Positions 6,236-51,145 of a stretch of DNA of 51,672 nucleotides are shown here, piece by piece; position 1 is the stretch's first letter; each line of letters starts with the position of its first letter. A program made the position numbers and the translations under genes. The notes under the pieces were generated by a model. It was not told the DNA's origin and made no database searches. It saw only the letters and a list, made by a program, of their open reading frames with translations. Source of the stretch: Candidatus Woesearchaeota archaeon (GTDB taxonomy: Archaea > Nanobdellota > Nanobdellia > Pacearchaeales > UBA12030); assembly GCA_964361585.1 (NCBI GenBank), contig CAYIBB010000002.1, positions 1-51,672 of the forward strand, in the 5' to 3' direction.

Positions 6236-6319
6236 GCCTCGGTAGCTCAAAGGTAGAGCATCGGTTTTGTAAACCGGAGGTTGAGGGTTCAATATAAAAT
6301 GAAAATCCCTCCCGAGGCT
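6236..6319 (+). tRNA. tRNA-Thr (anticodon UGU) with a ~12-nt insertion in the T-loop
   Basis: Hand-folded cloverleaf: acceptor GCCTCGG/CCGAGGC, D-arm GCTC-AAAGGTA-GAGC, anticodon arm TCGGT-TTTGTAA-ACCGG, T-stem GAGGG/CCCTC. The T-stem encloses 19 nt (TTCAATATAAAATGAAAAT) instead of 7. Confidence 0.85.
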
Positions 6320-6328
6320 TAATTTTAA

Positions 6329-6742
6329 CTAGTGCCCAATACTAATCTCTTTTAATTTCTCGATGACTTCCTCTTCTATAAGATACTCTTTAATATACTC
6401 ATCCCACTCTTTGGGGTTCCATACTTGAAAATGACCGAAACAACCTATAGCCTTTACTGTAGAACCATTAGAAATACCGATTTTTGATAATTCTGAAGAT
6501 GTCAATTGAATCCTACCTTCGTTATCGACAGAAATTGGATTTTTGCGGGGTTTTTCGCCTACAACTTTTTCGTAATTTGTTGTAGGAATACATCCTAAAA
6601 ATCTGAATGGCACGGTCATTCCAGGAATTAGATCGCTAGCTACAACAATCAATTCTAAACTTCTCCACTTTGTCGGCAAAAAAATTCTACCCCTATCAAC
6701 ACATAGATTGTATTCTCCTGAATATCTCCTTTCATACGTCAT
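6329..6742 (-). CDS. MraZ-like double SpoVT/AbrB-domain protein
   Basis: Two MraZ-type DxxxR repeats: YSGEYNLCVDRGRIFLPTKWR and SVDNEGRIQLTSSELSKIGISNGSTVKAIGCFGHFQVWNPKEWDEY. Start moved to Met40 of the ORF-track entry (6742) because the longer form overlaps tRNA-Val. Confidence 0.6.
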   Translation of the reverse strand: MTYERRYSGEYNLCVDRGRIFLPTKWRSLELIVVASDLIPGMTVPFRFLGCIPTTNYEKVVGEKPRKNPISVDNEGRIQLTSSELSKIGISNGSTVKAIGCFGHFQVWNPKEWDEYIKEYLIEEEVIEKLKEISIGH

Positions 6743-6778
6743 TTTTCCAATACCTAGCCTAAAAATACATCCAGAAAG

Positions 6779-6789
6779 TATTTTAAAAA
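6779..6789 (+). promoter_or_regulatory. TATA-box candidate for tRNA-Val
   Basis: tattttaaaaa centred about 27 nt upstream of the tRNA 5' end, the usual archaeal TATA spacing. Confidence 0.45.
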
Positions 6790-6811
6790 CCTTTCTCCCT
6801 GCATTAGTTAA

Positions 6812-6945
6812 GGGCCCGTGGTCTAGTGGTTTAACCTTTTTGGAAAAAAGCTTAACCAAAAAGAATAAATAGAAAAACTAAAAACTCCACAAATGACGCT
6901 TCGTTGACGTCGAAGAGATCCTCGGTTCGAGTCCGAGCGGGCCCA
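6812..6945 (+). tRNA. tRNA-Val (anticodon GAC) with a ~60-nt D-loop intron
   Basis: Acceptor GGGCCCG/CGGGCCC plus A73, anticodon arm CTTCG-TTGACGT-CGAAG, T-arm CTCGG-TTCGAGT-CCGAG. D-stem GTCT...TGAC is separated by 69 nt, which includes an internal hairpin TTTTTGG/CCAAAAA. Confidence 0.85.
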
Positions 6946-9158: not shown

Positions 9159-11087
9159 ATGAAAAGAGGACAATTAAGCCTATTTGTAATTATAGCCCTC
9201 GTAATAATTATTGTAGCATCAGCTCTATTCCTTACTTTCTATTTCGGCCCTGTAAGCATTGAACAGATTCCCACAAAGTTCCGACCCTTTGAGGAGTCAT
9301 ATCTTTCCTGTCTCGAGAACTTGATTATGGATGGAGCTAAGACTCTTGGTCAGCAGGCAGGATATGTAAATGTTCCAGCTACCGAGCCAGGAAGTGAATT
9401 TATGCCTTTTGGAAATAATCTTAACTTTCTAGGCAGAGAGATTCCGTACTGGTATTATGTAAGTGCTAATAATCTTGAAGTTTCCAAAATTCCATCGATT
9501 GGCTTTATGAATTCTGAACTTGAAAGTTATGTTGAGGAAAATATTGGCAAATGCAACTCTGTTGTGTCAAATTTTGAGGAACAGGGCTTCGAGATAATTA
9601 CAGCAAGGAACGCAGTGGCAGATGTTAATGTCAAGGATGAGGAAATTTCTGTTTCTGTGAATTATCCAATAACTCTCACTTTAGGAGATACGAAGACGAG
9701 GATTAATTCCCATAATGTTAAACTTTTAGTTAGCTTAGGAAGGCTATATGAAATAGCTAAGAAAATCATGGAGACAGAAAATTCAGACATGTTTGTGGAA
9801 CAGCGCACTATTGACTTACTATCTCTTTATAATGAGTTACCTTCAACTAAGGTCACTTTAGAGTGTAATCCTCAAAGGTGGCAGTATAGTAAAGTTCAAG
9901 GTGCACTTAAGAATGTTATAGCAAATAATATTCAGTTTTTAAAGATAAAAGGTACAAATTATGCAAAGTCTGATAACTACTTTGAAATTCCCGTTGATAG
10001 TGTATCAGCTAGAGATGTAAATGTTAACTTTTTATTTATAGAGCAGCCATTCAAGTTAGAAATAACTCCTGAAAATCTTGAGGGTGAGAGCATCACTGAA
10101 CTAGCTCCTCAATTCCTTCGCAGCTTTTTGTGCCTTTCCTCTTACGATTTTGTGTATGATGTTTCGTATCCTGTTCTAGTTGTGCTACACGATGACAATA
10201 ATTTTGTATTTCAGTTTCCTTTTACTGCTGTAGTGGATAACAATCAGCCTCGCAAGAATCTTTTGGCTGAGGATTTTGGGCAGGTAGATGTGCCTCTTTG
10301 TGGACATAAACTTGCCTTCGGAAAAATATCAACTTACGAAGCTCAAGATGAAAATTTAGTCCCCCTTGAGGGTGTTGATGTAAGCTACAAGTGTATTAAC
10401 TCTATGTGTCATATTGGTCAGACTGAATTGCAGGGCACAGATGCAGTGCTTGAAAATACGCTTCCTCAATGCGTGAATGGCTTTATCATAGCTGAAAAGG
10501 ATGGCTACGCAAGAACAAAACAACAGATTTCTACCAATGTTGATAGTTTAGAAACACAACTTGTGCTTAATAAACTCAATAAGTTGGATGTTAATCTAAG
10601 AATTATTGATCTAAATGGAAATGAAAGAAGCCTTGGCAGTAATGAATTTGCTCTAGTATCTATAGTTGAAGAAGATCGAGAGTTTCAGCAAAGTTTGGTT
10701 TATCCTGAGGATAGTGAAATTGAACTCACAGGAGGACTTTATGAGGTTAAGATTCAGCTCTTTAAGGATCAAGTAACAACCTTTGAGCCACAGAAAATCG
10801 AAAATTGTATAAAAGTTCCAGCAAGTGGAATTTTAGGGATCTTTGGAGCAAAAGAAGAGCAGTGCAATACAGTAGAAATTCCAGCTCAGGAAGTTACTCA
10901 GATGCTTTTCGGTGGAACTTCCTTTAATTGGTTTGTTCAGAAAAGTGATATTGAGAATGCAAACAGAGTCACCCTCTACGCTATTGAGTATGATGTTCCT
11001 GGATTGGTGGATGATCTAAGTAAAATTTATCTTGAACTTGAAGTTAATTCGCAATACGATGTATTTAAGCAGCCAGAATTTAGCTAG
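9159..11087 (+). CDS. Large secreted/surface protein with a type IV pilin-like (class III) signal peptide
   Basis: N-terminus MKRGQ-LSLFVIIALVIIIVASALFL fits the archaeal prepilin-peptidase pattern [KR]-G-[Q]-[L] followed by a hydrophobic helix. The remaining 610 aa have no recognised domain. Lies 25 nt upstream of the giant ORF on the same strand. Confidence 0.7.
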   Translation: MKRGQLSLFVIIALVIIIVASALFLTFYFGPVSIEQIPTKFRPFEESYLSCLENLIMDGAKTLGQQAGYVNVPATEPGSEFMPFGNNLNFLGREIPYWYYVSANNLEVSKIPSIGFMNSELESYVEENIGKCNSVVSNFEEQGFEIITARNAVADVNVKDEEISVSVNYPITLTLGDTKTRINSHNVKLLVSLGRLYEIAKKIMETENSDMFVEQRTIDLLSLYNELPSTKVTLECNPQRWQYSKVQGALKNVIANNIQFLKIKGTNYAKSDNYFEIPVDSVSARDVNVNFLFIEQPFKLEITPENLEGESITELAPQFLRSFLCLSSYDFVYDVSYPVLVVLHDDNNFVFQFPFTAVVDNNQPRKNLLAEDFGQVDVPLCGHKLAFGKISTYEAQDENLVPLEGVDVSYKCINSMCHIGQTELQGTDAVLENTLPQCVNGFIIAEKDGYARTKQQISTNVDSLETQLVLNKLNKLDVNLRIIDLNGNERSLGSNEFALVSIVEEDREFQQSLVYPEDSEIELTGGLYEVKIQLFKDQVTTFEPQKIENCIKVPASGILGIFGAKEEQCNTVEIPAQEVTQMLFGGTSFNWFVQKSDIENANRVTLYAIEYDVPGLVDDLSKIYLELEVNSQYDVFKQPEFS

Positions 11088-11112: not shown

Positions 11113-14100
11113 ATGAATAAAAGAGGAATTAAAATTGTAGAGAAGTTTATTGCAATCTTCTTAATTTTACTTTTAGTAACATCTTCTATAATATATATCC
11201 CTTCATCAACTGCGCAGCAGCAAACGCAGAATGTTAATAATGTCCCTACAGAATTTCCTACAACTACAGTAGTTACCGCAACTCCTTCAGGACCTGTAAT
11301 AACTACTGACTTTATTCCGGCTCAGTTCATTAATGCCTCGCAAGACTTTCTAGTCTTTGTGGACGATTACGAGCCGAAAGTTGTTCGTAGTGACCTTTTG
11401 GAGGAACAGTCAGTTCCAGTTTATGCGAAACTCAGGCTTTTGAATTCAAATCCTCTTATCGAACCAATAATAAGAGATGTGAATGTAAGGCAAACTGAAT
11501 TCAACAATTTTGTTGCTGGAGTAGGACATTTGGATCCACCCGGAAGAAAATTTACTACTGATAATGTTGGTTATGCTATCATTTTCTTGCGAGGAGGGCT
11601 TCCAGAGAAGGAAATTCCCGACAAATTAGACATAAAGGCACAGGCTGACATTATTTATGATTATCAATTCACTCCAGGAGTAAGGCGCGAAGACTTTGTG
11701 CTTGTTCCTTTAAGTGATGATGACTTCGAGGCATTGCAGTTAGAGCATTCCTTTTGGAATAGAGCAGGCTATATTCGAGTAATGGAAGTAAGGGAGAGTT
11801 CTGCTCGTGTTCAAGTTTATGATGGCCTCCGTAATGTGATTGGCAGTTTCGACTTGACCTTACAGCGACCTCAGAGTGCTCCCTTTAAAGCCACAAGGAC
11901 TGCATTCACAACACATGCTGCAACTGGATTTGCAGTAGTACAACTTAATAATATTGAGTTCCCTCAGACAAGAGCAAAGCTGCTAGTAAATGTTAATGGT
12001 CATGAACAAGTTAGAGAAGTTGCAAAAGGCGCAGCTATTTATGAAGGCTCACAATGGTTTGTTGAGGACATTTTCATTATAGATGAGATTAGAGGAACTG
12101 GCTCAGTAGTCTTGAGGAAGAAAGGTACTCCTGAAAGTGTAACTTTGGAATTGAGTAGTCTAGAGGAGGAGAAGAAAGAGGAAGCAAAGAAACTTGCAGC
12201 TCCGATTGAAATTGCGACTAATAAGATAATAGCTTTAGCAAGAGATGAAAGTAAATACATGGGTAAGCCTTACATATGGGGTGGTGAAGCTCTAGAAGAA
12301 GGAGGCTTTGACTGCAGCGGTTTAGTTTATGCTATTTATAACGAATTAGGATTAATTAAAGATAGGCTAACTGCACATGCTTATTACAATTTGTTTAAAC
12401 CTAATGGTCCTGGACTTGACTCAAGTAAATGGAAATCAGGAGATGTTTGCTTTTTTGATTGGGGAAAAGATGGCAAAATAGATCATGCTGCAATTTACAG
12501 TGGATTTCGGAATGGGAATCATTGGGTAATTGATGCCTCTTCAACCCAAAGGCCTGTTAGTGAAAGACCCGGAGTAATAGAAGGCGCAATATCCGAAAAT
12601 AAATTCAAAGGCTGCTTTCGAGTTCCTGGAGCTGAGAAGTATCAGAGTCAAAGTTCACAACCAAACACAAATTCCCCCTCCCCCTCAACCGCATTACCAT
12701 TACCACCAATAGCAACAGCTGCAATTCTTGTTGATGCTCCAGGGAGTGAAGTGCAAGATTCACTTAAGCAAAAGCCAGAATCATGGCCTCAGGGATTTTC
12801 ACTTGAAAAGACAACATTTGATGGAATAAATTATTACAGGGCTTTCATCTCTCAAGAAGAAAGTGAAATTAAAACTTACATTTACAAATCTGAGGATTTT
12901 TCTGTTGGCAAGTCCTTTAAGGTAATTTTAAGGAAGGAAGGATTTTCTGGAAGCGTAACTCTTGTTGGCAGTAAAACTGAAGGTTATACCCAACTTGTGT
13001 TGTTTGATGTAGTAGGCAGAGAGGAAGGCAGGAAGCCAATCAGCATTTCATACGACTCCGTATTCTCTAACACTTACACAATAAATGATGCAATTAATGA
13101 GGCATTGAAGATAAGAGGGGCTGAGAGAGTGGAGATTCCGGCAACTGCGCAGGAGGCTTATAATGAAGCAGTCTCAGCATATTGGGAAGTTGTGAATACT
13201 TTTCCATTCCTAGAGATAGAGGATGAGCAGGACAAGGCCACCCATCAATTTTGGGCAGTAAAAGCACTTCGAGGAATCGTAAGCTTAAGCGATCACTTTA
13301 TACAGCAAAGCTTGAATGTACAAAGGGCTAAGGATGAAAAGATAAGGGCTCTTACTTACTTGAAGGAAAATTATGCGGAACAATTTACAAGAGAAGATGA
13401 GCAGGAACTTAATAGACTCTTTAATTATGATGTGAGTAAGGCCACAGATTCTTTGCTTGAAGATTCCAATACTATAGTGGTATCATTACAGAAAATTAAT
13501 TTCCCAAAAAATAAATTTACTGAATTCTCTCTTGATGGTACTTACTCTGGGGATATATTTTCAGTAGGTAAGCTTTTTGAAGGTTCTGAGTTAGGAGCCT
13601 TGAGTAGTGTAGAAATTTCTGACATTTCAGCTAATCAAGTTACCTTCAACATAGGAAGTGCTCCTAAAACTTTAGGAATCGGCCAGCAAGAAACTTTCGG
13701 GGGAATTACATTCAAGTTAATTGATACGCCAGAGACCGAAGAAATAACAACGACAGAAGGAGAAAGAACTACCTCAAAAGTCAGAAAAGCAAAACTTGAG
13801 ATTTCAATCTCAAATTCACGCGCAAAACTAAAGGAAAATGATTACTTTCTTGGCTGGAAAGTGGATAGCATTAATCCTGACACTGTGATTTTGAAAAAGG
13901 AACAATCCACTAAGTTCTTGCGCAAGGGAATCAACAAAGTTGCATTTCCTCCATCTCTTGATATTACTGTACTTAATTTGAATATTCCCCGTGAAGTAAG
14001 CTTAAGTGTGGTTCCATACACTATTGGAGGCCGTTCTACAGTTTCATTCGATCTACATGTTGCTGTCGAGAAAAGGCTTATTAAAATAGGACCTAAGGCT

Positions 14101-17100
14101 GCGGCAGAACAGGCAAACAAAACTAGAGAAATTTCAGCGCAGATAAAGAAAATCACTGACAGTTTAGGCAATTCTATTGAGACTGGAAAACAAGCATGCT
14201 TTGCAACTTATTCTGCCCTTCTTCTAAAAAACTTTGTACAGAGCTATAAGGGAGAAGCTGTTGCAAGAAAGCGAGTTATGGATTCATTCAAAGATGAATG
14301 CAAAGACAAAGTAGGATTTAACAAACAGTATAATAATTATCATGAATGCTTCCTTGCGCAGGAAAATGAGATTGAGCGTGCAGTTGGAGATATGCAAAAG
14401 GCTATTGATAAGACTGATGCATTGTTGAAGGAAGTGACTGTAAAGAAAGAAGACATCACTGAAGTTGATCCTAATAAATTGAAAGAAGTTCTAAAGAGAG
14501 AATTCCCGAATGTTGATATTGATGAACAAATAAACACTATTTCAAGGTATGAGGAAAAAGCAGGCCATGAAATCTTGTTGCCAAGTGAAGTTAAGGAATT
14601 GGTATTTACACTTTCTGCAAATAAGGAATTTTCTGATGAGAAAGATGGAAGTGTGTTGCGAGAAGATTACAAAGTAAGGACTGATAATAAGGTTAATTTC
14701 TATAATGAAAATGCAGAGGAATTTACTAAAGTACTTGCAGAGTACGAAGAATTTAAACAGAAACTTAAAGATCAGAGCATAAGTCCAGACATGTCTGATC
14801 CAGAGCTACTCAATTATTTCCTTGAGATTAGGCAGCAGCAAGGAACACTTTATGCTCCTCAAGCTATAACATCAGGAGGAAAAACTTACGTCTACGTGTA
14901 TCAAACTAAAGAATGGAAAGAGGCAGAGCGAGAAGGTAATACATTAACTTATACGATAGAAAAAGATGAAAAGAAGGAAAAAATTACAATTCCAATTAAA
15001 ACCTCGTGTGTTGATCAAAAAGAAGGATATCAGATTCAGTATTATGGTTCAGGAAGTAATAGTGGATTGCCTGCAGTAGTTCCATTTCCCATTGAAAGTG
15101 GAGAAGGGTACATTAAAGTTAACAAGTATGATAGCAGCGGGAAGCCTCTCGAGACTTTATTGCATGTTCCTATAGCAGGAGATTGTCAGAACATTTTTTA
15201 CAGAGCAGGTCAAGATATTCCTTCTGTATGGAAGAACTCCATAGATAAAGGACTTGAGGCAGTAAGAATTGCTACTCTTGTTCAGATGAAAGAAGCAGGA
15301 AGAAAGGCTTTCATCTTTGGCAAGGCATATCCCATAGGAAGGCAGATTGTGGAAGCTCCTTCTGCTCAATGTGAGGATTTCATGTCTATAAGCGACTGCG
15401 AAATTCTTTTTCAAGTATGCGATCCTGTAATGTGTCCTAGTTCAAGATGTAACTTTGGAGGAAGATGGCAGGTTTCAGATGTTGTGCAGACAGGAGTTAT
15501 AGGCAGTATCGCATTATGTGCTCCAAACTTCCCACATCCAGTACTTCCTGTATGTTTACCAGGGGTTAGGGCAGGGCTTCTTAATTATGCGAGCATTTTA
15601 GATGCGTATGCCCAGTGCCTTGATGAATCTCGTACCTCAGGAAAAACCACAGGAATTTGTGATCAAATCCGCTCCATTTATACCTGCGAGTTTATATGGC
15701 GAGAGGGAATGGCAATTGCAAATGCAGAAGGAGGACTTTTCGATATACTTTCAAGAACCTTATTCGGAGCCCAAAAAGGAGGCGGCGAGTATCTTGCATT
15801 CAAAGAAAACTTTGACAGAGTGGGAGAAAGTGTGAAATTCTTTACTTCCCAATATGCTGCAACTGCCTTCCAAGCATTCAGAGCAAGAAGCGGGGAAGAA
15901 GTTGGAAGTTTCATTTGCAAGGCTGCATTCTTCGGCAGACTTCCAGGAATAAGTGGAGTGTTTGAAGACCTAAGTAAGCCAGAAAGCCCTCCTCAGTTTT
16001 ATGGCTTCTTCGAGGAAATTCAACATTCAAGTGTAAGCACTCTTGGAGTATCTACTTTGTCAGCACCTCAATCTCAGTATAAGGTATTCTTTCACATTTT
16101 CGCAGGGGAAAATAAAGGAGTCTTCTACCGAGTTTACTTAACAGATCCTGTGCCTGTTCCAGGATTCTTTACAGCGCCTATATTAATAATTCCTCGTCCT
16201 GAGACGCAGGGCTTTATTCCTGCAAATCAGTTTAAAGACGAAACTCTCGATTTCCTCGCAACTTCAGGATACAGACAGCTCTGTGTAGAAATTGATGGAG
16301 TTCCTTACTGTGGCTTTAAGCAAACAACTTCTGATTTCCTTGTGAACTTTCTTAATGACAAGTACTTGAATGAACAGCTTAGTAAGAAAGTGACTAGTGC
16401 GCAGGAATGCATTTCTGGATCAAGCAGCCTACTTCCTTTGATTCCAGGAACTAATTTTGGATTGAGTGCAGGAGCTACAGAGAGCATCGAAGGAGGTGTG
16501 TTGCGAAGAGGTATTACTCGTGTGTGCAGCGAGGAAAATCCCGGTAAGGGAACAAACCCTGAAAGATGGGCTCAAGCGGGGAGTTGTGGAAAGGTCCAGA
16601 ATAAAGAACTTACATGTTGGCTTGATACCTCATCTGTAAAGGGAGCCATCACAGATCTCAAGTTTGAAACTGCAGTATTGCAAGATGCACAACAATTCAA
16701 CACGAAGTTCCTAGAGGAAGAGGGATTTTTCACTCCTGAAAAAACTGAAAGCGAGATTGAGAATTTGAGAGGCTTATTGCAGAATGCTAAAAGAAATGAG
16801 AATGCAGTTCTCAAGGGAGAATTCAAGCCAAGTTCTGCACAGGAAAGTTACCGAGAAGTTTTAGGAGCTTCACAAGTTCTTTTCGAGAAGACTTTAAATC
16901 CAGAGGCAAAGGCTGAAGCTAAGCTGACAGTAGCAGATGCAAATGCAGGCATAGCAAGAATTGTGCTTCAGGAGCAGATTATTGCTTACAAACAAAAGTT
17001 AAGAGAAAGAGTAGAGCAGGAAGCTGCAAGCCAATCCACACAGACAACTCCCCCTCAACCAACAACAACTCCTTCGATCCCCGCCACACCGACTACACCA

Positions 17101-17871
17101 ACTCCAACTCAACCAACACCAAGTGAAGAAATTGTGGAAAAGCAGATAGGAAATGTGCGGGCGGGAGATACTTTTAAGGTAGGACAATTTGACTTTAAAT
17201 TAATAAGAATGGAACAAGAGGTAAAGGATAATTTAGCCACCAATGAATTTGCTGCTGTTTTAGAAGTGGAATTTAATGGAGAATTATTAAGATGTTACGA
17301 TACACCAATTCCTCAGTTTGGTGCATTAAGGCTTAAAAGTGATGGTACTATAGATTATGGGTTAAATAAAAATATAGATCCAGAATGTAAAGACATAAGT
17401 TTCAAAGATGTTAGAAATACCCAATTTGCAATTGCTACTGCAGTCGTAACAGTTAAAATTTCTAAGGAAAATGAAATATCTAGTGGTAGCAAAATTAAAT
17501 TTGATAGTGATACAGATGAAGAATTTACTGTAAGAATGGGTAGTAAATACTTTATAATCAAATTCAAAGGATTTGATAATAAGAGACATCCTGATTTAGG
17601 ACGAGATGTTGGTGTTGCTATGCTCGAATTAAGAAGAGGAACTACTGCAGGAATTCAATATCTTGATTGCTGGAAAGGCCAAGGCATTGAAAGAAATGTT
17701 GTAGTATCAGCTGTTCCAACTTCTTCAACATATTTTGGAGATACTATATGGCAAGGATCAATTCCTAATTTTGATGGGATTGATCAAGCATTTTGTAGCG
17801 AAATATCCTTTGAGGACATCAAAGTTAATCTGAATGAGAATTCTATTGAAGCCACTATAGATCTAAAGTAA
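11113..17871 (+). CDS. Giant (2,252 aa) secreted multidomain protein with an NlpC/P60 domain
   Basis: Uninterrupted 6.76-kb ORF in a stop-rich AT-rich genome. It has an N-terminal signal-anchor (FIAIFLILLLVTSSIIY), an NlpC/P60 domain (aa ~365-505), Pro/Ser/Thr linkers (aa ~511-532 and ~1975-2005), a Cys-rich block (>=20 Cys, nt ~15000-16630) and two related C-terminal modules. Confidence 0.9.
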   Translation: MNKRGIKIVEKFIAIFLILLLVTSSIIYIPSSTAQQQTQNVNNVPTEFPTTTVVTATPSGPVITTDFIPAQFINASQDFLVFVDDYEPKVVRSDLLEEQSVPVYAKLRLLNSNPLIEPIIRDVNVRQTEFNNFVAGVGHLDPPGRKFTTDNVGYAIIFLRGGLPEKEIPDKLDIKAQADIIYDYQFTPGVRREDFVLVPLSDDDFEALQLEHSFWNRAGYIRVMEVRESSARVQVYDGLRNVIGSFDLTLQRPQSAPFKATRTAFTTHAATGFAVVQLNNIEFPQTRAKLLVNVNGHEQVREVAKGAAIYEGSQWFVEDIFIIDEIRGTGSVVLRKKGTPESVTLELSSLEEEKKEEAKKLAAPIEIATNKIIALARDESKYMGKPYIWGGEALEEGGFDCSGLVYAIYNELGLIKDRLTAHAYYNLFKPNGPGLDSSKWKSGDVCFFDWGKDGKIDHAAIYSGFRNGNHWVIDASSTQRPVSERPGVIEGAISENKFKGCFRVPGAEKYQSQSSQPNTNSPSPSTALPLPPIATAAILVDAPGSEVQDSLKQKPESWPQGFSLEKTTFDGINYYRAFISQEESEIKTYIYKSEDFSVGKSFKVILRKEGFSGSVTLVGSKTEGYTQLVLFDVVGREEGRKPISISYDSVFSNTYTINDAINEALKIRGAERVEIPATAQEAYNEAVSAYWEVVNTFPFLEIEDEQDKATHQFWAVKALRGIVSLSDHFIQQSLNVQRAKDEKIRALTYLKENYAEQFTREDEQELNRLFNYDVSKATDSLLEDSNTIVVSLQKINFPKNKFTEFSLDGTYSGDIFSVGKLFEGSELGALSSVEISDISANQVTFNIGSAPKTLGIGQQETFGGITFKLIDTPETEEITTTEGERTTSKVRKAKLEISISNSRAKLKENDYFLGWKVDSINPDTVILKKEQSTKFLRKGINKVAFPPSLDITVLNLNIPREVSLSVVPYTIGGRSTVSFDLHVAVEKRLIKIGPKAAAEQANKTREISAQIKKITDSLGNSIETGKQACFATYSALLLKNFVQSYKGEAVARKRVMDSFKDECKDKVGFNKQYNNYHECFLAQENEIERAVGDMQKAIDKTDALLKEVTVKKEDITEVDPNKLKEVLKREFPNVDIDEQINTISRYEEKAGHEILLPSEVKELVFTLSANKEFSDEKDGSVLREDYKVRTDNKVNFYNENAEEFTKVLAEYEEFKQKLKDQSISPDMSDPELLNYFLEIRQQQGTLYAPQAITSGGKTYVYVYQTKEWKEAEREGNTLTYTIEKDEKKEKITIPIKTSCVDQKEGYQIQYYGSGSNSGLPAVVPFPIESGEGYIKVNKYDSSGKPLETLLHVPIAGDCQNIFYRAGQDIPSVWKNSIDKGLEAVRIATLVQMKEAGRKAFIFGKAYPIGRQIVEAPSAQCEDFMSISDCEILFQVCDPVMCPSSRCNFGGRWQVSDVVQTGVIGSIALCAPNFPHPVLPVCLPGVRAGLLNYASILDAYAQCLDESRTSGKTTGICDQIRSIYTCEFIWREGMAIANAEGGLFDILSRTLFGAQKGGGEYLAFKENFDRVGESVKFFTSQYAATAFQAFRARSGEEVGSFICKAAFFGRLPGISGVFEDLSKPESPPQFYGFFEEIQHSSVSTLGVSTLSAPQSQYKVFFHIFAGENKGVFYRVYLTDPVPVPGFFTAPILIIPRPETQGFIPANQFKDETLDFLATSGYRQLCVEIDGVPYCGFKQTTSDFLVNFLNDKYLNEQLSKKVTSAQECISGSSSLLPLIPGTNFGLSAGATESIEGGVLRRGITRVCSEENPGKGTNPERWAQAGSCGKVQNKELTCWLDTSSVKGAITDLKFETAVLQDAQQFNTKFLEEEGFFTPEKTESEIENLRGLLQNAKRNENAVLKGEFKPSSAQESYREVLGASQVLFEKTLNPEAKAEAKLTVADANAGIARIVLQEQIIAYKQKLRERVEQEAASQSTQTTPPQPTTTPSIPATPTTPTPTQPTPSEEIVEKQIGNVRAGDTFKVGQFDFKLIRMEQEVKDNLATNEFAAVLEVEFNGELLRCYDTPIPQFGALRLKSDGTIDYGLNKNIDPECKDISFKDVRNTQFAIATAVVTVKISKENEISSGSKIKFDSDTDEEFTVRMGSKYFIIKFKGFDNKRHPDLGRDVGVAMLELRRGTTAGIQYLDCWKGQGIERNVVVSAVPTSSTYFGDTIWQGSIPNFDGIDQAFCSEISFEDIKVNLNENSIEATIDLK
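12205..12627 (+). other. NlpC/P60 papain-like hydrolase domain inside the giant ORF
   Basis: GKPYIWGGEALEEGGFDCSGLVYAIY (Cys401, nt 12313-12315), ...GKIDHAAIYSG (His458, nt 12484-12486) and ...GNHWVIDAS (His470): the canonical Cys-His-His arrangement and spacing. Confidence 0.8.
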
Positions 17872-17900: not shown

Positions 17901-18401
17901 TTAAGCCCTTTCTAGTTCTTCAATAAGCTGTATATAAAGTTCTTGAGAAATTCTAAAGCCAAAGAGGAGTAATTTATTTATTAATTCTAATGCTTCTTTT
18001 TTATTTATTAAACTTTTTCTATATGCTATCAAAATCACATAAAGTGTACCTTTAACATTAAAACCAAAACTTTCAGCAATTGCTCTAGCAGAAGCATCAT
18101 CAACAAGAACAAGGGAGGGCTTTAGTTTTTTTGCTAAACTTATTAAAGCTACTTCTCCTAAATCTAATTCAGGAACAAATTTTTCTAATTCTTTGTCTTT
18201 TTCAACAGATTTTATTTTAATCCAACCTTTCTTTATTGCTTCTTCAATAACAAGAGCATCAGCAAATTTTTCTTCTTTCCCTTTTAAAATTTCTTTACAA
18301 ACCTCTTCTGGAATAAGAATAGAAGTGAAAAGTTTCTTTAATAGTCCTAGTCTACCGAGTTTAGATAAATAAATTAAAGGACTTGCATTTGAGATTATCA
18401 T
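17901..18401 (-). CDS. PIN-domain protein (DUF3368/COG2405-type putative toxin)
   Basis: N-terminus IISNASPLIYLSKLGRLGLLKKLF..ILIPEEV and downstream LVDDASAR match the COG2405 PIN-like pattern. Starts 1 nt after the UPF0175 gene. Confidence 0.7.
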   Translation of the reverse strand: MIISNASPLIYLSKLGRLGLLKKLFTSILIPEEVCKEILKGKEEKFADALVIEEAIKKGWIKIKSVEKDKELEKFVPELDLGEVALISLAKKLKPSLVLVDDASARAIAESFGFNVKGTLYVILIAYRKSLINKKEALELINKLLLFGFRISQELYIQLIEELERA

Positions 18402-18402
18402 A

Positions 18403-18705
18403 TCATGCTAAGGCCTTCAAATCCTCTTTTAACTCCTTTTGGCCATATTGTGCAGGCACTTTTCTCTCTCTTATAATTTCCATCATCTTCCAAAGGGATA
18501 TACCAGCAAGTCTTGCAGCCTTCCATAATGTGGTTTTTCCCTCTTTATAGAGCTTAATTGCTTCTTCAATCTTTTTTTCTTTTATACCTAAAACCAATAG
18601 TTCTCTCATAATCTTAGACTTGTCTTTACCCTCAACTTCTGAGAGTTTTTTTATTTCCATATCAACTTCTAAAGGTAACCTAAAGGTCATCAACTTCCCT
18701 TTCAT
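18403..18705 (-). CDS. UPF0175-family (COG2886) putative antitoxin
   Basis: 100 aa with the UPF0175 C-terminal HTH-like motif LYKEGKTTLWKAARLAGISLWKMMEIIRERKVP. Paired with the PIN gene. Confidence 0.7.
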   Translation of the reverse strand: MKGKLMTFRLPLEVDMEIKKLSEVEGKDKSKIMRELLVLGIKEKKIEEAIKLYKEGKTTLWKAARLAGISLWKMMEIIRERKVPAQYGQKELKEDLKALA

Positions 18706-18992: not shown

Positions 18993-19493
18993 ATGAACTT
19001 ACACAGATTTTTAAAAGAAAATGTAGGAGCCAGAAAAATATTTGGCAGAAGAGAACTAAGAATTATTGAGAAGCAGTTAATGGGAGTTAACTTAACACAA
19101 TCAGAAAAGAATAGGCTTTCAAGGGATATAAGAAAGAAGTTTGAGTTTATTAATAAAGTTTCAAGATTTGAAAATGAATTTGAATTAAAAAAGGGAGCAG
19201 AAATTAAGAGAATTATAGAAGAAACGAGGGAAATTATCTTATCCAACACTTTGTTTAAGAAAATCCAAAAAATCATTCTATACGGTTCAGTTGTTGAGAA
19301 TAAATTAACTTTCAGATCGGATATAGATATAGCAGTTCAATTTGACAATATAAATTTAAAAGAGGCTACTTTATTCAAAAAAACAATTTCTGGAAGAGTA
19401 AGTCAGAGAGTCAATGTAGAAGTTTATAATTATTTACCCCAAAAAATCAAGAAAGAAATTGACATTAAAGGGAAAATTATCTACAAAAAATGA
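18993..19493 (+). CDS. Nucleotidyltransferase-domain protein (MNT-type antitoxin-like)
   Basis: Minimal nucleotidyltransferase motif ILYGSVVENKLTFRSDIDIAV (GS-x9-SDxD). Followed by a HEPN remnant. Confidence 0.75.
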   Translation: MNLHRFLKENVGARKIFGRRELRIIEKQLMGVNLTQSEKNRLSRDIRKKFEFINKVSRFENEFELKKGAEIKRIIEETREIILSNTLFKKIQKIILYGSVVENKLTFRSDIDIAVQFDNINLKEATLFKKTISGRVSQRVNVEVYNYLPQKIKKEIDIKGKIIYKK

Positions 19494-26633: not shown

Positions 26634-26739
26634 TGGACTCGCCGGGATTCGAACCCGGAATCTCTCCCCAGCCAAGGGAGCATTCTTTAACAAACTTTTC
26701 ACGCTTTTTTCAAAAAGTTTACCGTTGAACTACGAGCCC
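26634..26739 (-). tRNA. tRNA-Ala (anticodon GGC, G3:U70) with a ~32-nt D-loop intron
   Basis: Acceptor GGGCTCG/CGAGTCC (G3:U70 Ala identity pair) plus A73, anticodon arm CTCCC-TTGGCTG-GGGAG, T-arm CCGGG-TTCGAAT-CCCGG. D-stem GTTC...GAAT encloses 41 nt, including the hairpin AACTTTT/AAAAGTT. Confidence 0.85.
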
Positions 26740-44478: not shown

Positions 44479-44946
44479 ATGGTTAATCCAATTATTATAG
44501 TAATACTCCTAAGCATTTCGCCCATTTCAGAGCTTAGAGGTGCTATTCCAACTGGAATTGCCCTTGGACTTGATCTATGGACAGTATTCTTAATTGCAGT
44601 AATCGCAAACATACTAATTTCTGCCGTAATCTTCCTTTTCTTAGATTTTATACATAAAAGACTTATTACCAATTCTAATTACAGAAAGTTCTTTAACAGG
44701 TACGTTGAACATATAAGAACAAGAAAAAATAGTGTTCAGAAAAAAATCAATCTTTATGGTTTGCCGGCATTGGCAATTTTCGTGGCAATTCCTTTACCCT
44801 TGACTGGCGCTTACACTGGCACTTTAATTGCATGGCTTCTTAATCTTAATCGGTGGAAGGCATTCGCTGCTATTGCTCTTGGAGTAGTTGTGGCTGGACT
44901 ACTTGTGACTTTTGTTACTCTTGGTATTGTTAGCCTTATTTTTTAA
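44479..44946 (+). CDS. Small multidrug-export-family (COG2426-like) membrane protein
   Basis: ISPISELRGAIPTGIALGL motif and four predicted TM helices; 155 aa. Confidence 0.6.
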   Translation: MVNPIIIVILLSISPISELRGAIPTGIALGLDLWTVFLIAVIANILISAVIFLFLDFIHKRLITNSNYRKFFNRYVEHIRTRKNSVQKKINLYGLPALAIFVAIPLPLTGAYTGTLIAWLLNLNRWKAFAAIALGVVVAGLLVTFVTLGIVSLIF

Positions 44947-45538
44947 TAATCCTAAAAACTTCTTTCAAGTCAGAGTAAATAGGTACTCCTTTAACTCTAA
45001 AAATCTTTACAGTAAGAATCCAGATTCCAACTACTATGATTGTGGAGCCTAGTATCCAAAATGTAATATGGACCTTATTAAAAAGATCGAGACCATACTG
45101 CACTAGAATTACAATTAGTATCATAATTCTTAATACATTGACTAGCAAGAACGCGAGGGAAGTGAAAAGAAAGATTTTGATTCTATCGCTAATGCTTATG
45201 CCTTTAGTAAGTAAATTCAGGATTAAGAGCAGATAGTAGGCAGAGCCGGCAATGCAGGCATTGATTAACTCTATTACATAACTGTTAATGTAAAAGACGT
45301 TTCCTTCCACAAGCATTGGGTAGAATAAACTTATAAGGAATGAGCTTAATAGCACCGTTAGAGGTGTGAAGACAGCATAAAATAATGCTAAAGAGTTTAC
45401 TGAAAATAGCAGCAGAATTGCCAGCCTTGCACCAAAATCTATTAAATAGTTCCTAGCTTTTAATGCAATTACTGGCTTATCCTTACTATGTCTGCCTCTT
45501 TTTGCTCTTTGCACTTTATTTTTCATCCTATCTTTCAT
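44936..45538 (-). CDS. Small exosortase/archaeosortase-family protein
   Basis: Polytopic 200-aa membrane protein with the three family signature positions in order: Cys (ELINACIAGSAYYL), Arg (LVNVLRIMILI) and His (NKVHITFWILGS). Confidence 0.6.
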   Translation of the reverse strand: MKDRMKNKVQRAKRGRHSKDKPVIALKARNYLIDFGARLAILLLFSVNSLALFYAVFTPLTVLLSSFLISLFYPMLVEGNVFYINSYVIELINACIAGSAYYLLLILNLLTKGISISDRIKIFLFTSLAFLLVNVLRIMILIVILVQYGLDLFNKVHITFWILGSTIIVVGIWILTVKIFRVKGVPIYSDLKEVFRIIKK

Positions 45539-46927: not shown

Positions 46928-48889
46928 ATGAAAAAGATATTTTTTGCGACACTCGCATTTGTTTTTGTAGTTTTTACGGCATTCAATGTTTTGGCTGCAG
47001 TTCAAATTAATTCAGTAAGCACTGCAGCAGGAATTCCAGGAGATACTCTGACTTTGAATGCGAATGTTACTAATACAGACTTAACTAGTTCAGTAAATGT
47101 TGTCTTTAATAGCACAATCCTTACAGGCCCTTCTGGATTTACAATCAATGCTCCTTCAATAAATCCTGCAACTATTCCTGCTAATACCACACAATTAGTA
47201 TTCTTTACAATAAACATTCCTTCCGTACTAACGGGAGATTATTCTGGGACTTTAACCGCAATAGGACCAAATACAGTCACAAAGCAGTATATTATTACTG
47301 TAAACTCCAAGGATGCTCTTGATGTGTTGGAAACCTCACTTTCATTGAAGGAGCAACCAGGGGAGCAAGCTTCTGGGACAATCACTATAAAGAACGCAGG
47401 AAGTAGCAATCTTAACTTTGTGTCCTCAAGTTTCTCGTTTAATGGAGCAGACTTTTCTGATGGTACTGAAAATATTACCTTGGGTTTTAGCCCTAATACT
47501 TTTACAATAAAGCCAGCTGAAACTAAATCAGTAGTGGTTAGTGCATTAATTGGTGATGATATAACTATTGATGACTATTCTGGCTCAATTTCAGTAAATT
47601 CTGGAAGTGCCATAGATACATTTACTTTGGAGGTAGAAGCACGCCCTGATCTATGTGATGAGGGTCCTAAAGGTGGAAATCTTGAAATTACAAGAATAGT
47701 TGACCCTTCTTCTGGCGAGGATTTCAAGCCACTCGAAACAGTGGAAGTTACAGTAAGAGTACAGAATAATGATGATGACGAGCTTGATATTATTATTGAG
47801 GCATTCCTTGTAGACAAAGAAGATAATGACGAACTTGACAGTGTAGAGTTTGAAACTACAATAGACGAGGATGATACAGAAGATTATGATCTTGAGTTAA
47901 AAATTCCTGCCGACGTAAAGGAAAGTTCAAACAGATATGCAATTTATGTAAAGGTTTTCGAGGATGGAGAGGAAGATAACCAATGTCAGGAAAAAAGTAC
48001 AGATATAGAAATAAAGAAAGATAATCATAATGTTGCAGTTGATGAAGACGAGGTCAATATTCCTGACACTCTTGTATGTGGCATAACAAATTCAGTTGAC
48101 GTTACTGTGGTCAATACTGGTTCTGACAATGAAGATGATGTTACTGTAACCGTAAAGATTCCAGAATTAGGAATTTCTGACACTAGTAGTAAGTTCGACA
48201 TCGATGAGGAAGAGGATGAGAAGGTGCAATTATCACTTTTAGTTCCAAGGGATGTTACAGATGGAGAGTACACCCTGCGATTTGAGGTTAGAGATGAAGA
48301 TGATGATATTTTTGATGATGGAATCTTCGAGCAGAGTGTAAGTATCTCCTGTGTCTCAGGGCCGCCAACACAGCCACCTACTCCTCCAAGTACTTCACAA
48401 GTAACATTAACCTTAACAAAGAAATCCTTCGAGGTAGAGTCAGGACAGAGGCTTGATGTTACCCTCGTATTGCGAAATAATGCTAATACAGATACTGTAT
48501 TAACTGTAAATCTTGAGCCTAGTGGAAATTGGGCATCTCTCACTTCTCAGATTGTGGCACTGAAAGCAGGAGAGAGTAAAACCTTAACACTGAACTTAGC
48601 ATCAAAATCAGGAACTGATGATGGAACTTACACAGCTAGGGTTTCAGTAAGATCTAATGGAAATGAAGTAGCATCTGATAGTATTACTACCAGAGTTGCT
48701 TCTGCTGGAGGAGTTTCAGGAACAGGCGGAGTAATAGGAAGAACAATTCTTGAGGAAAACTTGCCTTTCGTAGTAATTAACATTATCCTTGTTATCATTA
48801 TAATAGTACTTATAGTGTGGATTTCTATGAGAAGGTCAAGGAAAGAAGTAAGTTCTGAAAGAACTTCCTCAAGTCCGAGAAAAAGATAA
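46928..48889 (+). CDS. S-layer-like/CARDB-repeat surface protein with a C-terminal TM plus basic anchor
   Basis: Signal peptide (MKKIFFATLAFVFVVFTAFNVLA), repeated beta-sandwich-like modules (e.g. VVNTGSDNEDDVTVTVKIPELG, GESKTLTLNLASKSGTDDGTYTARVSV), acidic D/E-rich stretches and N-x-S/T sequons. The C-terminus reads EENLPFVVINIILVIIIIVLIVWISMRRSRK followed by an 18-aa tail. Confidence 0.75.
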   Translation: MKKIFFATLAFVFVVFTAFNVLAAVQINSVSTAAGIPGDTLTLNANVTNTDLTSSVNVVFNSTILTGPSGFTINAPSINPATIPANTTQLVFFTINIPSVLTGDYSGTLTAIGPNTVTKQYIITVNSKDALDVLETSLSLKEQPGEQASGTITIKNAGSSNLNFVSSSFSFNGADFSDGTENITLGFSPNTFTIKPAETKSVVVSALIGDDITIDDYSGSISVNSGSAIDTFTLEVEARPDLCDEGPKGGNLEITRIVDPSSGEDFKPLETVEVTVRVQNNDDDELDIIIEAFLVDKEDNDELDSVEFETTIDEDDTEDYDLELKIPADVKESSNRYAIYVKVFEDGEEDNQCQEKSTDIEIKKDNHNVAVDEDEVNIPDTLVCGITNSVDVTVVNTGSDNEDDVTVTVKIPELGISDTSSKFDIDEEEDEKVQLSLLVPRDVTDGEYTLRFEVRDEDDDIFDDGIFEQSVSISCVSGPPTQPPTPPSTSQVTLTLTKKSFEVESGQRLDVTLVLRNNANTDTVLTVNLEPSGNWASLTSQIVALKAGESKTLTLNLASKSGTDDGTYTARVSVRSNGNEVASDSITTRVASAGGVSGTGGVIGRTILEENLPFVVINIILVIIIIVLIVWISMRRSRKEVSSERTSSSPRKR

Positions 48890-51006: not shown

Positions 51007-51145
51007 AGCAAGGGGTGGGATTCGAACCCACGAAATACGCGGTAGCCGCTTTTCTTTGTGGAGCTTTCCTATTTTCTTGATTAAACTTCTTTTCTAAAGA
51101 AGTTTATCTGCAGCCGCGCGCCTTAGACCACTTGGCTACCCTTGC
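51007..51145 (-). tRNA. tRNA-Cys (anticodon GCA, U73) with a 64-nt intron in or next to the anticodon loop
   Basis: Acceptor GCAAGGG/CCCTTGC plus U73 (Cys identity), D-arm GCC(A)-...-GGC, anticodon stem CGCGG/CCGCG enclosing 71 nt that begin CTGCAGA, T-arm GTGGG-TTCGAAT-CCCAC. Confidence 0.8.

Follow-up and report, generated by a model that had tools for sequence, protein, structure and literature searches.

A giant exported protein of a DPANN archaeon carries an NlpC/P60 domain on a scaffold with interchangeable peptidoglycan hydrolase modules

Introduction

What would an archaeon that is not expected to have murein do with an enzyme domain of a type that classically cuts it? The question is raised by a gene for a giant secreted protein in a 51,672-nucleotide stretch of DNA from a Candidatus Woesearchaeota archaeon (GTDB order Pacearchaeales; assembly GCA_964361585.1, contig CAYIBB010000002.1), hereafter the window. 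An earlier note on this DNA described, at positions 12205-12627, an intact NlpC/P60-type cell wall hydrolase domain in an archaeal surface protein and offered three substrates for it: the wall of a bacterial neighbor, the pseudomurein of an archaeal host, or an isopeptide or acyl bond outside any wall. Here, we establish that the domain is a genuine NlpC/P60 domain, revise its predicted active site, and trace the carrier protein to a large archaeal family whose members bear other murein hydrolases at the same or a second site. On these grounds, we argue that bacterial murein is the probable substrate.

Results

Identity, fold, and relatives of the domain

The region corresponds to amino acids 365-505 of the product of a single open reading frame (ORF; 11113..17871, forward strand), and the NlpC/P60 assignment is borne out by profile, sequence, and structure comparisons alike. 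Against a gathering score of 23, the NLPC_P60 profile (PF00877), which spans amino acids 384-483, scores 46.9 bits when run on the complete protein and 51.5 bits (E = 1e-13) when run on the segment alone. The Pfam profiles CHAP (PF05257; 18.4 bits vs 26) and Peptidase_C92 (PF05708, the permuted YaeF/LRAT type; 15.1 bits vs 27) remained below threshold, and the order of the active-site residues, Cys and then His, identifies the domain as the canonical, non-permuted type. Matches in NCBIfam were just partial and sub-threshold, to the NlpC/P60 peptidoglycan endopeptidases RipA/B/C, p60/Iap, and EntFM, and sequence searches of the PDB led to NlpC/P60 wall hydrolases (3h41, 7cfl, 6b8c, 4xcm, and LytE). 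An AlphaFold2 model of amino acids 351-518, built from an input alignment of 55 sequences (A3), has a mean predicted local distance difference test score (pLDDT) of 85 and a predicted template modeling score (pTM) of 0.81. Compared with the PDB by Foldseek, this model returned 16 matches at E <= 1e-3, NlpC/P60 entries without exception. The best of these, at E 1e-7 to 2e-6, are Clostridioides difficile CTn1-Orf17 (4hpe), the autolysins Acd24020 (7cfl) and Acd33800 (9ubf), the YkfC-like 3h41 of Bacillus cereus, and Escherichia coli MepS, with target-normalized template modeling scores of 0.82-0.85 against the C. difficile autolysin catalytic domains. Such matches are far above chance, and the domain is a genuine NlpC/P60 domain of papain-like alpha+beta fold.

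A search with the domain alone against a collection of 5.8 billion proteins gave 6 weak matches and thus revealed no close relative, and a profile search yielded thousands of ordinary bacterial proteins of the C40 family. Foremost among the relatives is a protein that we denote P0041 (127 bits), the sole close one found, with 46-49% identity. Second comes a Peptococcaceae protein (90 bits, 39-41% identity) in which NlpC/P60 is joined to two PG_binding_1 domains, followed by proteins of Clostridia, Actinomycetota, and Herpetosiphon and by short proteins of the C40 type that contain SPOR or SH3 domains. Identity to any bacterial sequence found is at most 46%. Pattern scans of GTDB genomes and of JGI and ENA metagenomes for EGGFDCS, GD[VL]CFFDW, and KPYIWGGE brought up bacterial relatives only and no further archaeal copy. 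The guanine-plus-cytosine (GC) content of the domain (0.378) resembles that of the rest of the gene (0.39 for the gene, 0.363 for the window), which indicates that the acquisition from bacteria was not recent. Recent horizontal transfer and contamination were considered as explanations and rejected, because the GC content of the domain fits the gene and the flanks are syntenic with other genomes of DPANN archaea.

The predicted active site

The earlier note proposed a Cys-His-His triad of Cys401, His458, and His470 with normal spacing. The numbering is correct, and the first two residues are invariant in all 55 aligned sequences; the third, however, has to be replaced. The canonical third-residue column, occupied by His in 46 of the 55 sequences within the motif h-h-H-A/S, holds Asp474 (VIDAS) in the query, and His470 aligns with the G/N/D of a beta-hairpin turn. 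Since a four-residue insertion (FRNG) lengthens the hairpin of the query, the distance of 12 residues between the two His, which had been taken as normal, is a coincidence. The hairpin is made up in the model of strands 458-466 and 469-474, each two residues longer, and the DSSP string suggests that Asp474, not His470, adjoins His458. Position 470 is taken by Pro in P0041, which retains the equivalent of Asp474, and the best bacterial relative has Asn at the latter position (FINAS).

Across the superfamily, any polar residue suffices as the third member of the triad, in combination with a signature Tyr that is the equivalent of papain Gln19 (PMC3142127). In the window protein, this Tyr is Tyr387 (PYIWGG), at invariant column Y37 of A3, and Arg418 and Asp444 occupy near-invariant columns. 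Because the third residue need only be polar, the predicted site Tyr387/Cys401/His458/Asp474 looks complete. The claim of catalytic competence can accordingly be kept as far as the completeness of the site goes, with Asp474 in the place given to His470.

The unusual Asp could also be taken as the mark of an inactive binding module or of an enzyme that remodels the envelope of the archaeon itself, as an autolysin or in sortase-like processing, and genes for further surface proteins, along with an ORF of weak exosortase similarity, do occur in the window. Inactive NlpC/P60 domains, though, usually lose the Cys, whereas Tyr, Cys, His, and the near-invariant Arg and Asp are all retained here, and the window has no genes for murein synthesis. 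We regard inactivity and own-envelope roles as the least probable of all readings considered.

A giant carrier shared by Pacearchaeota and their relatives

Searches with the whole protein retrieved 35 proteins, 34 of them giant (1457-3064 amino acids; E 1e-65 to 1e-264), from Pacearchaeota and Nanoarchaeota metagenome-assembled genomes and from metagenomes. An exhaustive search with amino acids 1-1200 extended the family to 852 cluster representatives at E < 1e-10, of which 164 reach E < 1e-30. All matches that bear a name are Pacearchaeota, Nanoarchaeota, or Nanoarchaeia; most are unnamed metagenome proteins. BLAST mapping resolved three collinear conserved blocks common to the homologues, and the resulting scaffold consists of an N-terminal domain, a helical middle part, and a Cys-rich C-terminal domain (Table 1). 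None of the 34 scaffold homologues aligns by BLAST over amino acids 351-650, the region of the NlpC/P60 domain, or over the tail (amino acids 1950-2252). These are the two variable sites of the protein, of which we call the first slot 1.

The scaffold has no match in Pfam. PDB sequence searches with the N-terminal domain, the middle part, the C-terminal domain and tail, a family profile, and the product of the adjacent gene (see below) gave nothing significant, with weak tetratricopeptide-repeat-like matches to BamD at E 0.005-0.025. Likewise, an AlphaFold2 model of the Cys-rich domain (pLDDT 73, pTM 0.42) found no counterpart at E <= 1e-3 in either the PDB or BFVD; weak matches of ApaG-type beta-sandwich came closest. 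The giant protein itself has no SLT match in Pfam at E <= 0.1, and NlpC/P60 is its only recognized enzyme domain. Its single hydrophobic segment lies at the N-terminus, and orthologues open with typical Sec signal peptides that end in VSA or ASA before a Q; a Sec-type signal with no other hydrophobic segment predicts that the protein is exported. A pilin-type signal (cleavage between G and IKIVE, with Glu at +5) was considered for the giant protein and rejected, as the orthologues have ordinary Sec signal peptides.

Part of the gene is also present in public data: the 3.7-kb contig JBBSZY010000022.1 (locus L001, GCA_038044485.1), which represents the same population, is identical to positions 12033-15736 of the window except around a run of 10 N. 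This gap, at ~13770..13800, splits the public copy into partial ORFs of 587 and 644 amino acids; the frame in the window is intact.

Exchange of peptidoglycan hydrolase modules

The Pfam labels of the scaffold homologues include Peptidase_M23, SLT, Glucosaminidase, and VanY. In P0007, the closest relative (37% identity), an M23 domain at amino acids ~379-471 occupies the slot that holds NlpC/P60 in the window protein. The same is true of P0043 of archaeon GW2011_AR6, the closest scaffold relative bearing a name and a representative of the AR6 clade (Pacearchaeota, GTDB order Pacearchaeales), which is collinear over amino acids 67-349 and 683-1956 (38% identity), with its M23 likewise located in slot 1. 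Judging from these alignments, M23 and NlpC/P60 are in-place replacements of one another between collinear orthologues. Other relatives carry their modules in the tail, after the Cys-rich domain: M23 in P0011, glucosaminidase in P0012, SLT in P0018 and P0021, two M23 and SLT in P0019, and VanY in P0020. The comparison of the NlpC/P60 triad across orthologues, which the earlier note had envisaged, does not apply as framed, since the scaffold orthologues lack this domain altogether.

A census with locally built hidden Markov models (HMMs), for which the top 150 representatives and 35 homologues were sampled, covered 181 long sequences and found, as lower bounds, M23 in 14, SLT in ~25, glucosaminidase in 2, and VanY in 1. 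NlpC/P60 was matched twice, in the window protein, the only such case among scaffold members, and in P0041, which is not a scaffold member. By position, the tail accounts for 38 domain matches and slot 1 for 9. When 22 random census-negative members were examined with Pfam, one had Amidase_3 (E = 8e-49), one had glucosaminidase, and 20 had no enzyme domain. About 30% of the family thus has a recognizable murein hydrolase, and six mechanistic classes are represented. By sequence comparison, the scaffold family carries interchangeable peptidoglycan-cutting modules: SLT, M23, glucosaminidase, VanY, Amidase_3, and NlpC/P60.

Two points concern individual sequences of the census. The tails of P0019, P0104, and P0128 each hold two or three wall-hydrolase modules, with M23 combined with SLT; SLT in P0019 is found amid three segments of M23 and perhaps splits an M23 domain. 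One local "SLT" HMM seed (P0021, amino acids 2183-2224) was disregarded, being a Cys-rich C-terminal motif and not SLT.

The six classes differ in the bond they cut. SLT and glucosaminidase act on the glycan strand, Amidase_3 on the bond between N-acetylmuramic acid (MurNAc) and L-Ala, NlpC/P60 within the stem peptide, M23 on the cross-links, and VanY on the terminal D-Ala. To our knowledge, bacterial murein is the only polymer that holds all of these bonds. The presence of six classes on one scaffold, each for a different murein bond, therefore points to bacterial peptidoglycan as the substrate of the family, and the nearest relatives of the NlpC/P60 domain, bacterial wall hydrolases with SPOR, SH3, and PG_binding_1 domains, indicate the same substrate. 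Of the three substrates originally offered, the wall of a bacterial neighbor is thus favored, and the six swapped murein-hydrolase classes, the canonical P60 type, and the bacterial relatives argue against pseudomurein and against an isopeptide or acyl bond; acyl substrates are unlikely.

Pseudomurein, or another envelope polymer of an archaeal host such as a methanogen, deserves attention on two counts: the known hosts of cultivated DPANN archaea are archaea, and gamma-Glu and epsilon-Lys isopeptide bonds could in principle be cut by a papain-fold peptidase. Pseudomurein, however, contains neither MurNAc nor D-amino acids, whereas SLT, VanY, Amidase_3, glucosaminidase, and M23 act on murein containing one or the other. 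The closest relatives of the domain are bacterial murein hydrolases, and neither Pfam, at E <= 0.1, nor the fold comparison with the PDB gave a match to pseudomurein endoisopeptidase (Pei, MEROPS C71). We consider an archaeal envelope target very improbable.

A conserved two-gene cassette

Just upstream of the giant gene lies a gene for a protein of 642 amino acids (Table 1), and homologues of 609-654 amino acids (27-45% identity), themselves free of Pfam domains, precede the giant gene by 12-38 nucleotides at three other DPANN loci, L003 (which encodes P0043), L004, and L005. All four partner proteins start with K/R-G/A-Q followed by a hydrophobic stretch of ~20 residues (MKRGQLSLFVIIALVII, MKKAQVTVFVVLAIVIV, PRKAQVALFAIIAIIVV, and NKKGQIALYVIIAILLV), which we take to be an archaeal class III (type IV pilin-like) signal-peptide motif. 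The partner has no match in Pfam or the PDB, and no prepilin peptidase is encoded in the window. Genes for a DHH phosphoesterase and S3Ae upstream, and for S8e, TFIIB, a metallo-beta-lactamase-fold protein, and tRNA-intron endonuclease downstream, are common to the loci; an LSM gene is found downstream in the three other loci and was not looked for in the window. This shared neighborhood indicates that partner and giant gene form a vertically inherited cassette of the core genome rather than a mobile element, and no mobile-element genes flank the operon.

The conserved locus bears on two further explanations, both of which share the bacterial murein substrate with the reading that we favor. 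The first is scavenging, in which the released protein would digest bacterial wall debris (necromass) to provide an archaeon of few biosynthetic pathways with amino acids and amino sugars and would have no specific host. A Sec signal and the lack of a membrane anchor beyond the N-terminus are compatible with this explanation, and peptidoglycan from dead cells has been proposed as an amino-acid source of Pacearchaeota (PMC11537232). Nevertheless, a syntenic, Cys-rich scaffold of 2000-3000 amino acids with a pilin-signal partner would be a costly way to deliver a 15-kDa enzyme to the medium, and no uptake or recycling genes are adjacent to the giant gene. Scavenging appears unlikely to us. The second explanation is an antibacterial weapon, a bacteriolysin that kills competitors in the manner of the Halogranum M23 hydrolases. 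Archaeal peptidoglycan hydrolases do kill bacteria (PMC12352652), and the swapping of catalytic modules resembles arms-race shuffling. Those hydrolases, however, are small, patchy in distribution, and enriched on plasmids and small contigs (PMC12352652), whereas the giant gene is chromosomal and syntenic across distant genomes, and most members of the scaffold family are without an enzyme module. A weapon seems to us a shade less likely still than scavenging.

Features of the window

Table 1. Coordinates and supporting evidence for the giant gene, its parts, and its partner (aa, amino acids; nt, nucleotides; AF2, AlphaFold2)
Feature	Position	Strand	Evidence or remark
Conserved 642-aa partner gene with class III (type IV pilin-like) motif, MKRG followed by QLSLFVIIALVIII	9159..11087	+	25 nt upstream of giant gene; homologues at three other loci
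Gene of 2252-aa giant secreted protein, scaffold-family member	11113..17871	+	ORF; 34 giant homologues; 164 cluster representatives at E < 1e-30
Signal peptide of Sec type (aa 1-34), predicted cleavage between STA and QQQ	11113..11214	+	Sole hydrophobic segment; orthologue signal peptides
Conserved N-terminal scaffold domain, aa ~70-350	11320..12162	+	Aligned in up to 34/35 homologues, 25-39% identity; no Pfam/PDB match
NlpC/P60 (C40) catalytic domain in variable slot 1, aa 365-510	12205..12642 (Pfam core 12262-12561)	+	Pfam, PDB sequence search, AF2, Foldseek
Tyr387, signature oxyanion-side Tyr	12271..12273	+	Invariant column; role in PMC3142127
Cys401, predicted nucleophile (DCSG motif)	12313..12315	+	Invariant, 55/55
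His458, predicted catalytic base	12484..12486	+	Invariant, 55/55
His470, earlier proposed third residue, probably not catalytic	12520..12522	+	Aligns with turn G/N/D; Pro in P0041
Asp474, predicted third (polar) triad residue at canonical His position	12532..12534	+	Aligns with His in 46/55; Asp in P0041, Asn in best bacterial relative
Ser/Pro/Gln-rich linker behind catalytic domain	12640..12693	+	Low-complexity runs, aa 511-526
Conserved middle scaffold block, aa ~950-1110	13960..14442	+	Aligned in 31-33/35 homologues
Conserved Cys-rich C-terminal scaffold domain, aa ~1300-1900	15010..16812	+	32-39% identity in nearly all homologues, many invariant Cys
Pro/Thr-rich linker	17029..17124	+	Composition
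Lineage-specific C-terminal tail, aa 2005-2252, no domain recognized	17125..17868	+	No homologue aligned, no Pfam match; module site in most relatives

The archaeal origin of the protein, presumed in the earlier note, agrees with the genes around it. The window is DPANN-like and carries archaeal housekeeping genes, including those for TFIIB, FtsZ, S3Ae, S8e, S15, L1, L10, L44e, aIF5A, aIF2-alpha, tRNA-intron endonuclease, Alba, SRP54/FtsY, and Spt5, and proteins that cluster with the product of the upstream gene are named "Nanoarchaeota archaeon". Its GC content is 36%. Two tRNAs of 106 nt (26634..26739) and 139 nt (51007..51145) were recovered by the Rfam covariance model only and missed by ARAGORN, which probably means that they contain introns. 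A third Rfam tRNA match, of 53 nt at 6236..6288, scores 29.1 against a gathering score of 29 and may be a tRNA half or a chance match. A scan for bacterial promoters and terminators was uninformative, with counts not above those in shuffled sequence.

Between the giant gene and the S8e gene, at 17901..18705 (reverse strand) and 18993..19493 (forward strand), lie a toxin-antitoxin-type pair of DUF3368 (PIN-like) and UPF0175 and a Pol-beta-type nucleotidyltransferase. Since no toxin-antitoxin pair separates the giant gene from LSM/S8e in the three related loci, the arrangement in the window would seem to be a local insertion. Elsewhere, a reverse-strand ORF of 176 amino acids (6329..6859) has a MraZ domain match of 30 bits; the bacterial mraZ gene stands first in the division/cell-wall (dcw) cluster. 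A weak exosortase/archaeosortase-like match (44936..45538, reverse strand) has 21.6 bits against a cut-off of 25.7. Near it lies the gene of a possible S-layer or surface protein of 653 amino acids (46928..48889, forward strand), which has a Sec signal, immunoglobulin-like (NPCBM_assoc) repeats, and, at its C-terminus, a membrane anchor and basic tail.

Discussion

Taken together, our results make it likely that the NlpC/P60 module, borne on an exported DPANN scaffold, cuts the stem peptides of bacterial murein at a bacterial host, prey, or neighbor. The giant protein would leave the cell via the Sec pathway, and the scaffold, possibly tethered through the pilin-like partner, would present the enzyme to the bacterial wall while being held at the archaeal surface or on the target. 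There, His458, oriented by Asp474, would activate Cys401 with the assistance of Tyr387, and a stem-peptide bond would be cut in the manner of a D,L-endopeptidase, for example that between gamma-D-Glu and the diamino acid. The local opening of the wall could serve attachment, uptake of cell contents, or feeding on muropeptides. Both the nature of this bond and a living bacterium, rather than wall debris, as the target are suppositions of this scheme.

Several observations weigh against this reading. About 70% of the family members show no recognizable hydrolase module, so the scaffold must have a function that is independent of wall cleavage. The giant protein has no wall-binding domain of the LysM, SH3, SPOR, or PG_binding type (Pfam, E <= 0.1). 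Asp as the third residue occurs in 1 of the 55 sampled sequences, the query itself, and the replacement of the usual His by a residue so rare in the sample may entail an altered activity or specificity. The genome was viewed through a window of 52 kb, and genes for murein-like synthesis may lie elsewhere in it. Finally, we infer both cleavage and a bacterial host from sequence comparison and predicted structure.

A more ambitious proposal, which we put forward tentatively and hold to be somewhat doubtful, concerns the cassette as a whole. The ~640-amino-acid pilin-signal partner and the Cys-rich scaffold of ~2000-3000 amino acids might constitute a dedicated device with which Pacearchaeota and Woesearchaeota attach to bacterial hosts and breach their walls, the "warheads" being exchanged at two sites to suit the wall chemistry of the host. 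We know of no Pacearchaeota or Woesearchaeota for which a host has been identified. If the proposal is true, the cassette would be the first molecular handle on episymbiosis of archaea on bacteria. The module type would then predict the wall type of the host, and we offer as a hypothesis that it tracks the host wall chemotype.

Whatever the fate of this proposal, six mechanistically different murein hydrolases on one conserved scaffold, each directed at a bond that bacterial walls contain and archaeal walls do not, provide much stronger genomic evidence of interaction between these archaea and bacteria than was given by the lone transglycosylase domain of earlier descriptions. The window protein is the first NlpC/P60-bearing member of the scaffold family that is known to us and the sole one among the ~180 sequences screened, and it adds the stem-peptide endopeptidase class to the repertoire. 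The 17-kDa domain, with four defined predicted catalytic residues, is a testable reagent, and enzymes of this kind may be of interest as antibacterials.

Comparison with known systems

Castelle et al. 2021 (fam00969, PMC8204110) proposed that bacterial walls are bound or degraded by giant "murein-like lytic transglycosylase" proteins, which are peculiar to Pacearchaeota and Woesearchaeota. The same was proposed for a "large lytic murein transglycosylase" by Vigneron et al. 2022 (PMC9723730) and is repeated in later surveys. The window protein resembles these proteins in length (2000-3000 amino acids), predicted extracellular location, and lineage, and its three scaffold blocks recur in 34 such proteins, several of them equipped with SLT. 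It differs in having no SLT and in carrying NlpC/P60 in an N-proximal slot. From the published description, rather than from the member list, we infer that the scaffold family is fam00969. The papers that we consulted on these giant proteins describe the transglycosylase domain only; the repertoire of six classes, the two insertion sites, and the partner with a pilin-like signal are not described there.

With the bacterial C40 D,L-endopeptidases, such as E. coli MepS/Spr, B. cereus YkfC (3h41), Bacillus subtilis LytE, and C. difficile Acd24020 (7cfl), the domain has in common the fold, the catalytic order, the PYxWGG and DCSG motifs, and the Cys/His dyad with its Tyr. Unlike them, it has Asp as the third residue, a four-residue insertion in the hairpin, and a five-residue insertion at KPNGPGLDS; identity in structural alignments is 22-28%, and the domain is embedded in a giant archaeal protein without a known wall-binding domain. 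Its closest relative, P0041, is a protein of 1508 amino acids (locus L002, 8001..12527, GCA_053537055.1) with an SdrD_B-like region, SLT, and a C-terminal NlpC/P60 domain, encoded on an archaeal contig (Pelota, aRF1 domain). In addition to sequence identity, the two domains share both insertions, the Asp, and a C-terminal GCFRV motif. The carrier, however, is unrelated and has no scaffold blocks, and P0041 bears the domain at its C-terminus, in combination with SLT. The ORFs after P0041 include four consecutive unannotated ones of 322-591 amino acids.

The modular peptidoglycan hydrolases of Strock et al. 2025, which are prominent in Nanoarchaeota (PMC12352652), are likewise archaeal and secreted, with a bacterial-type catalytic domain that was acquired from bacteria and shuffled. 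That survey required at least one known Pfam wall-binding domain, which the giant protein does not have, and its proteins differ from the giant one in size, distribution, and plasmid association as set out above.

The top structural matches of the domain lead to a further group, the Tn916 Orf14-type hydrolases of Gram-positive conjugative elements (C. difficile CTn1-Orf17, 4hpe, and CTn7-Orf16, 9ubf) and the tape-measure and tail lysins of phages. The carrier of the archaeal family has no homology to phage or conjugation proteins, and it resides at a conserved core-genome site without flanking mobile-element genes. Nevertheless, both the conjugative and phage-tail hydrolases and the archaeal scaffold family place NlpC/P60, SLT, and M23 enzymes on a large non-enzymatic carrier, and those of conjugative elements and phages serve to breach a foreign wall locally.

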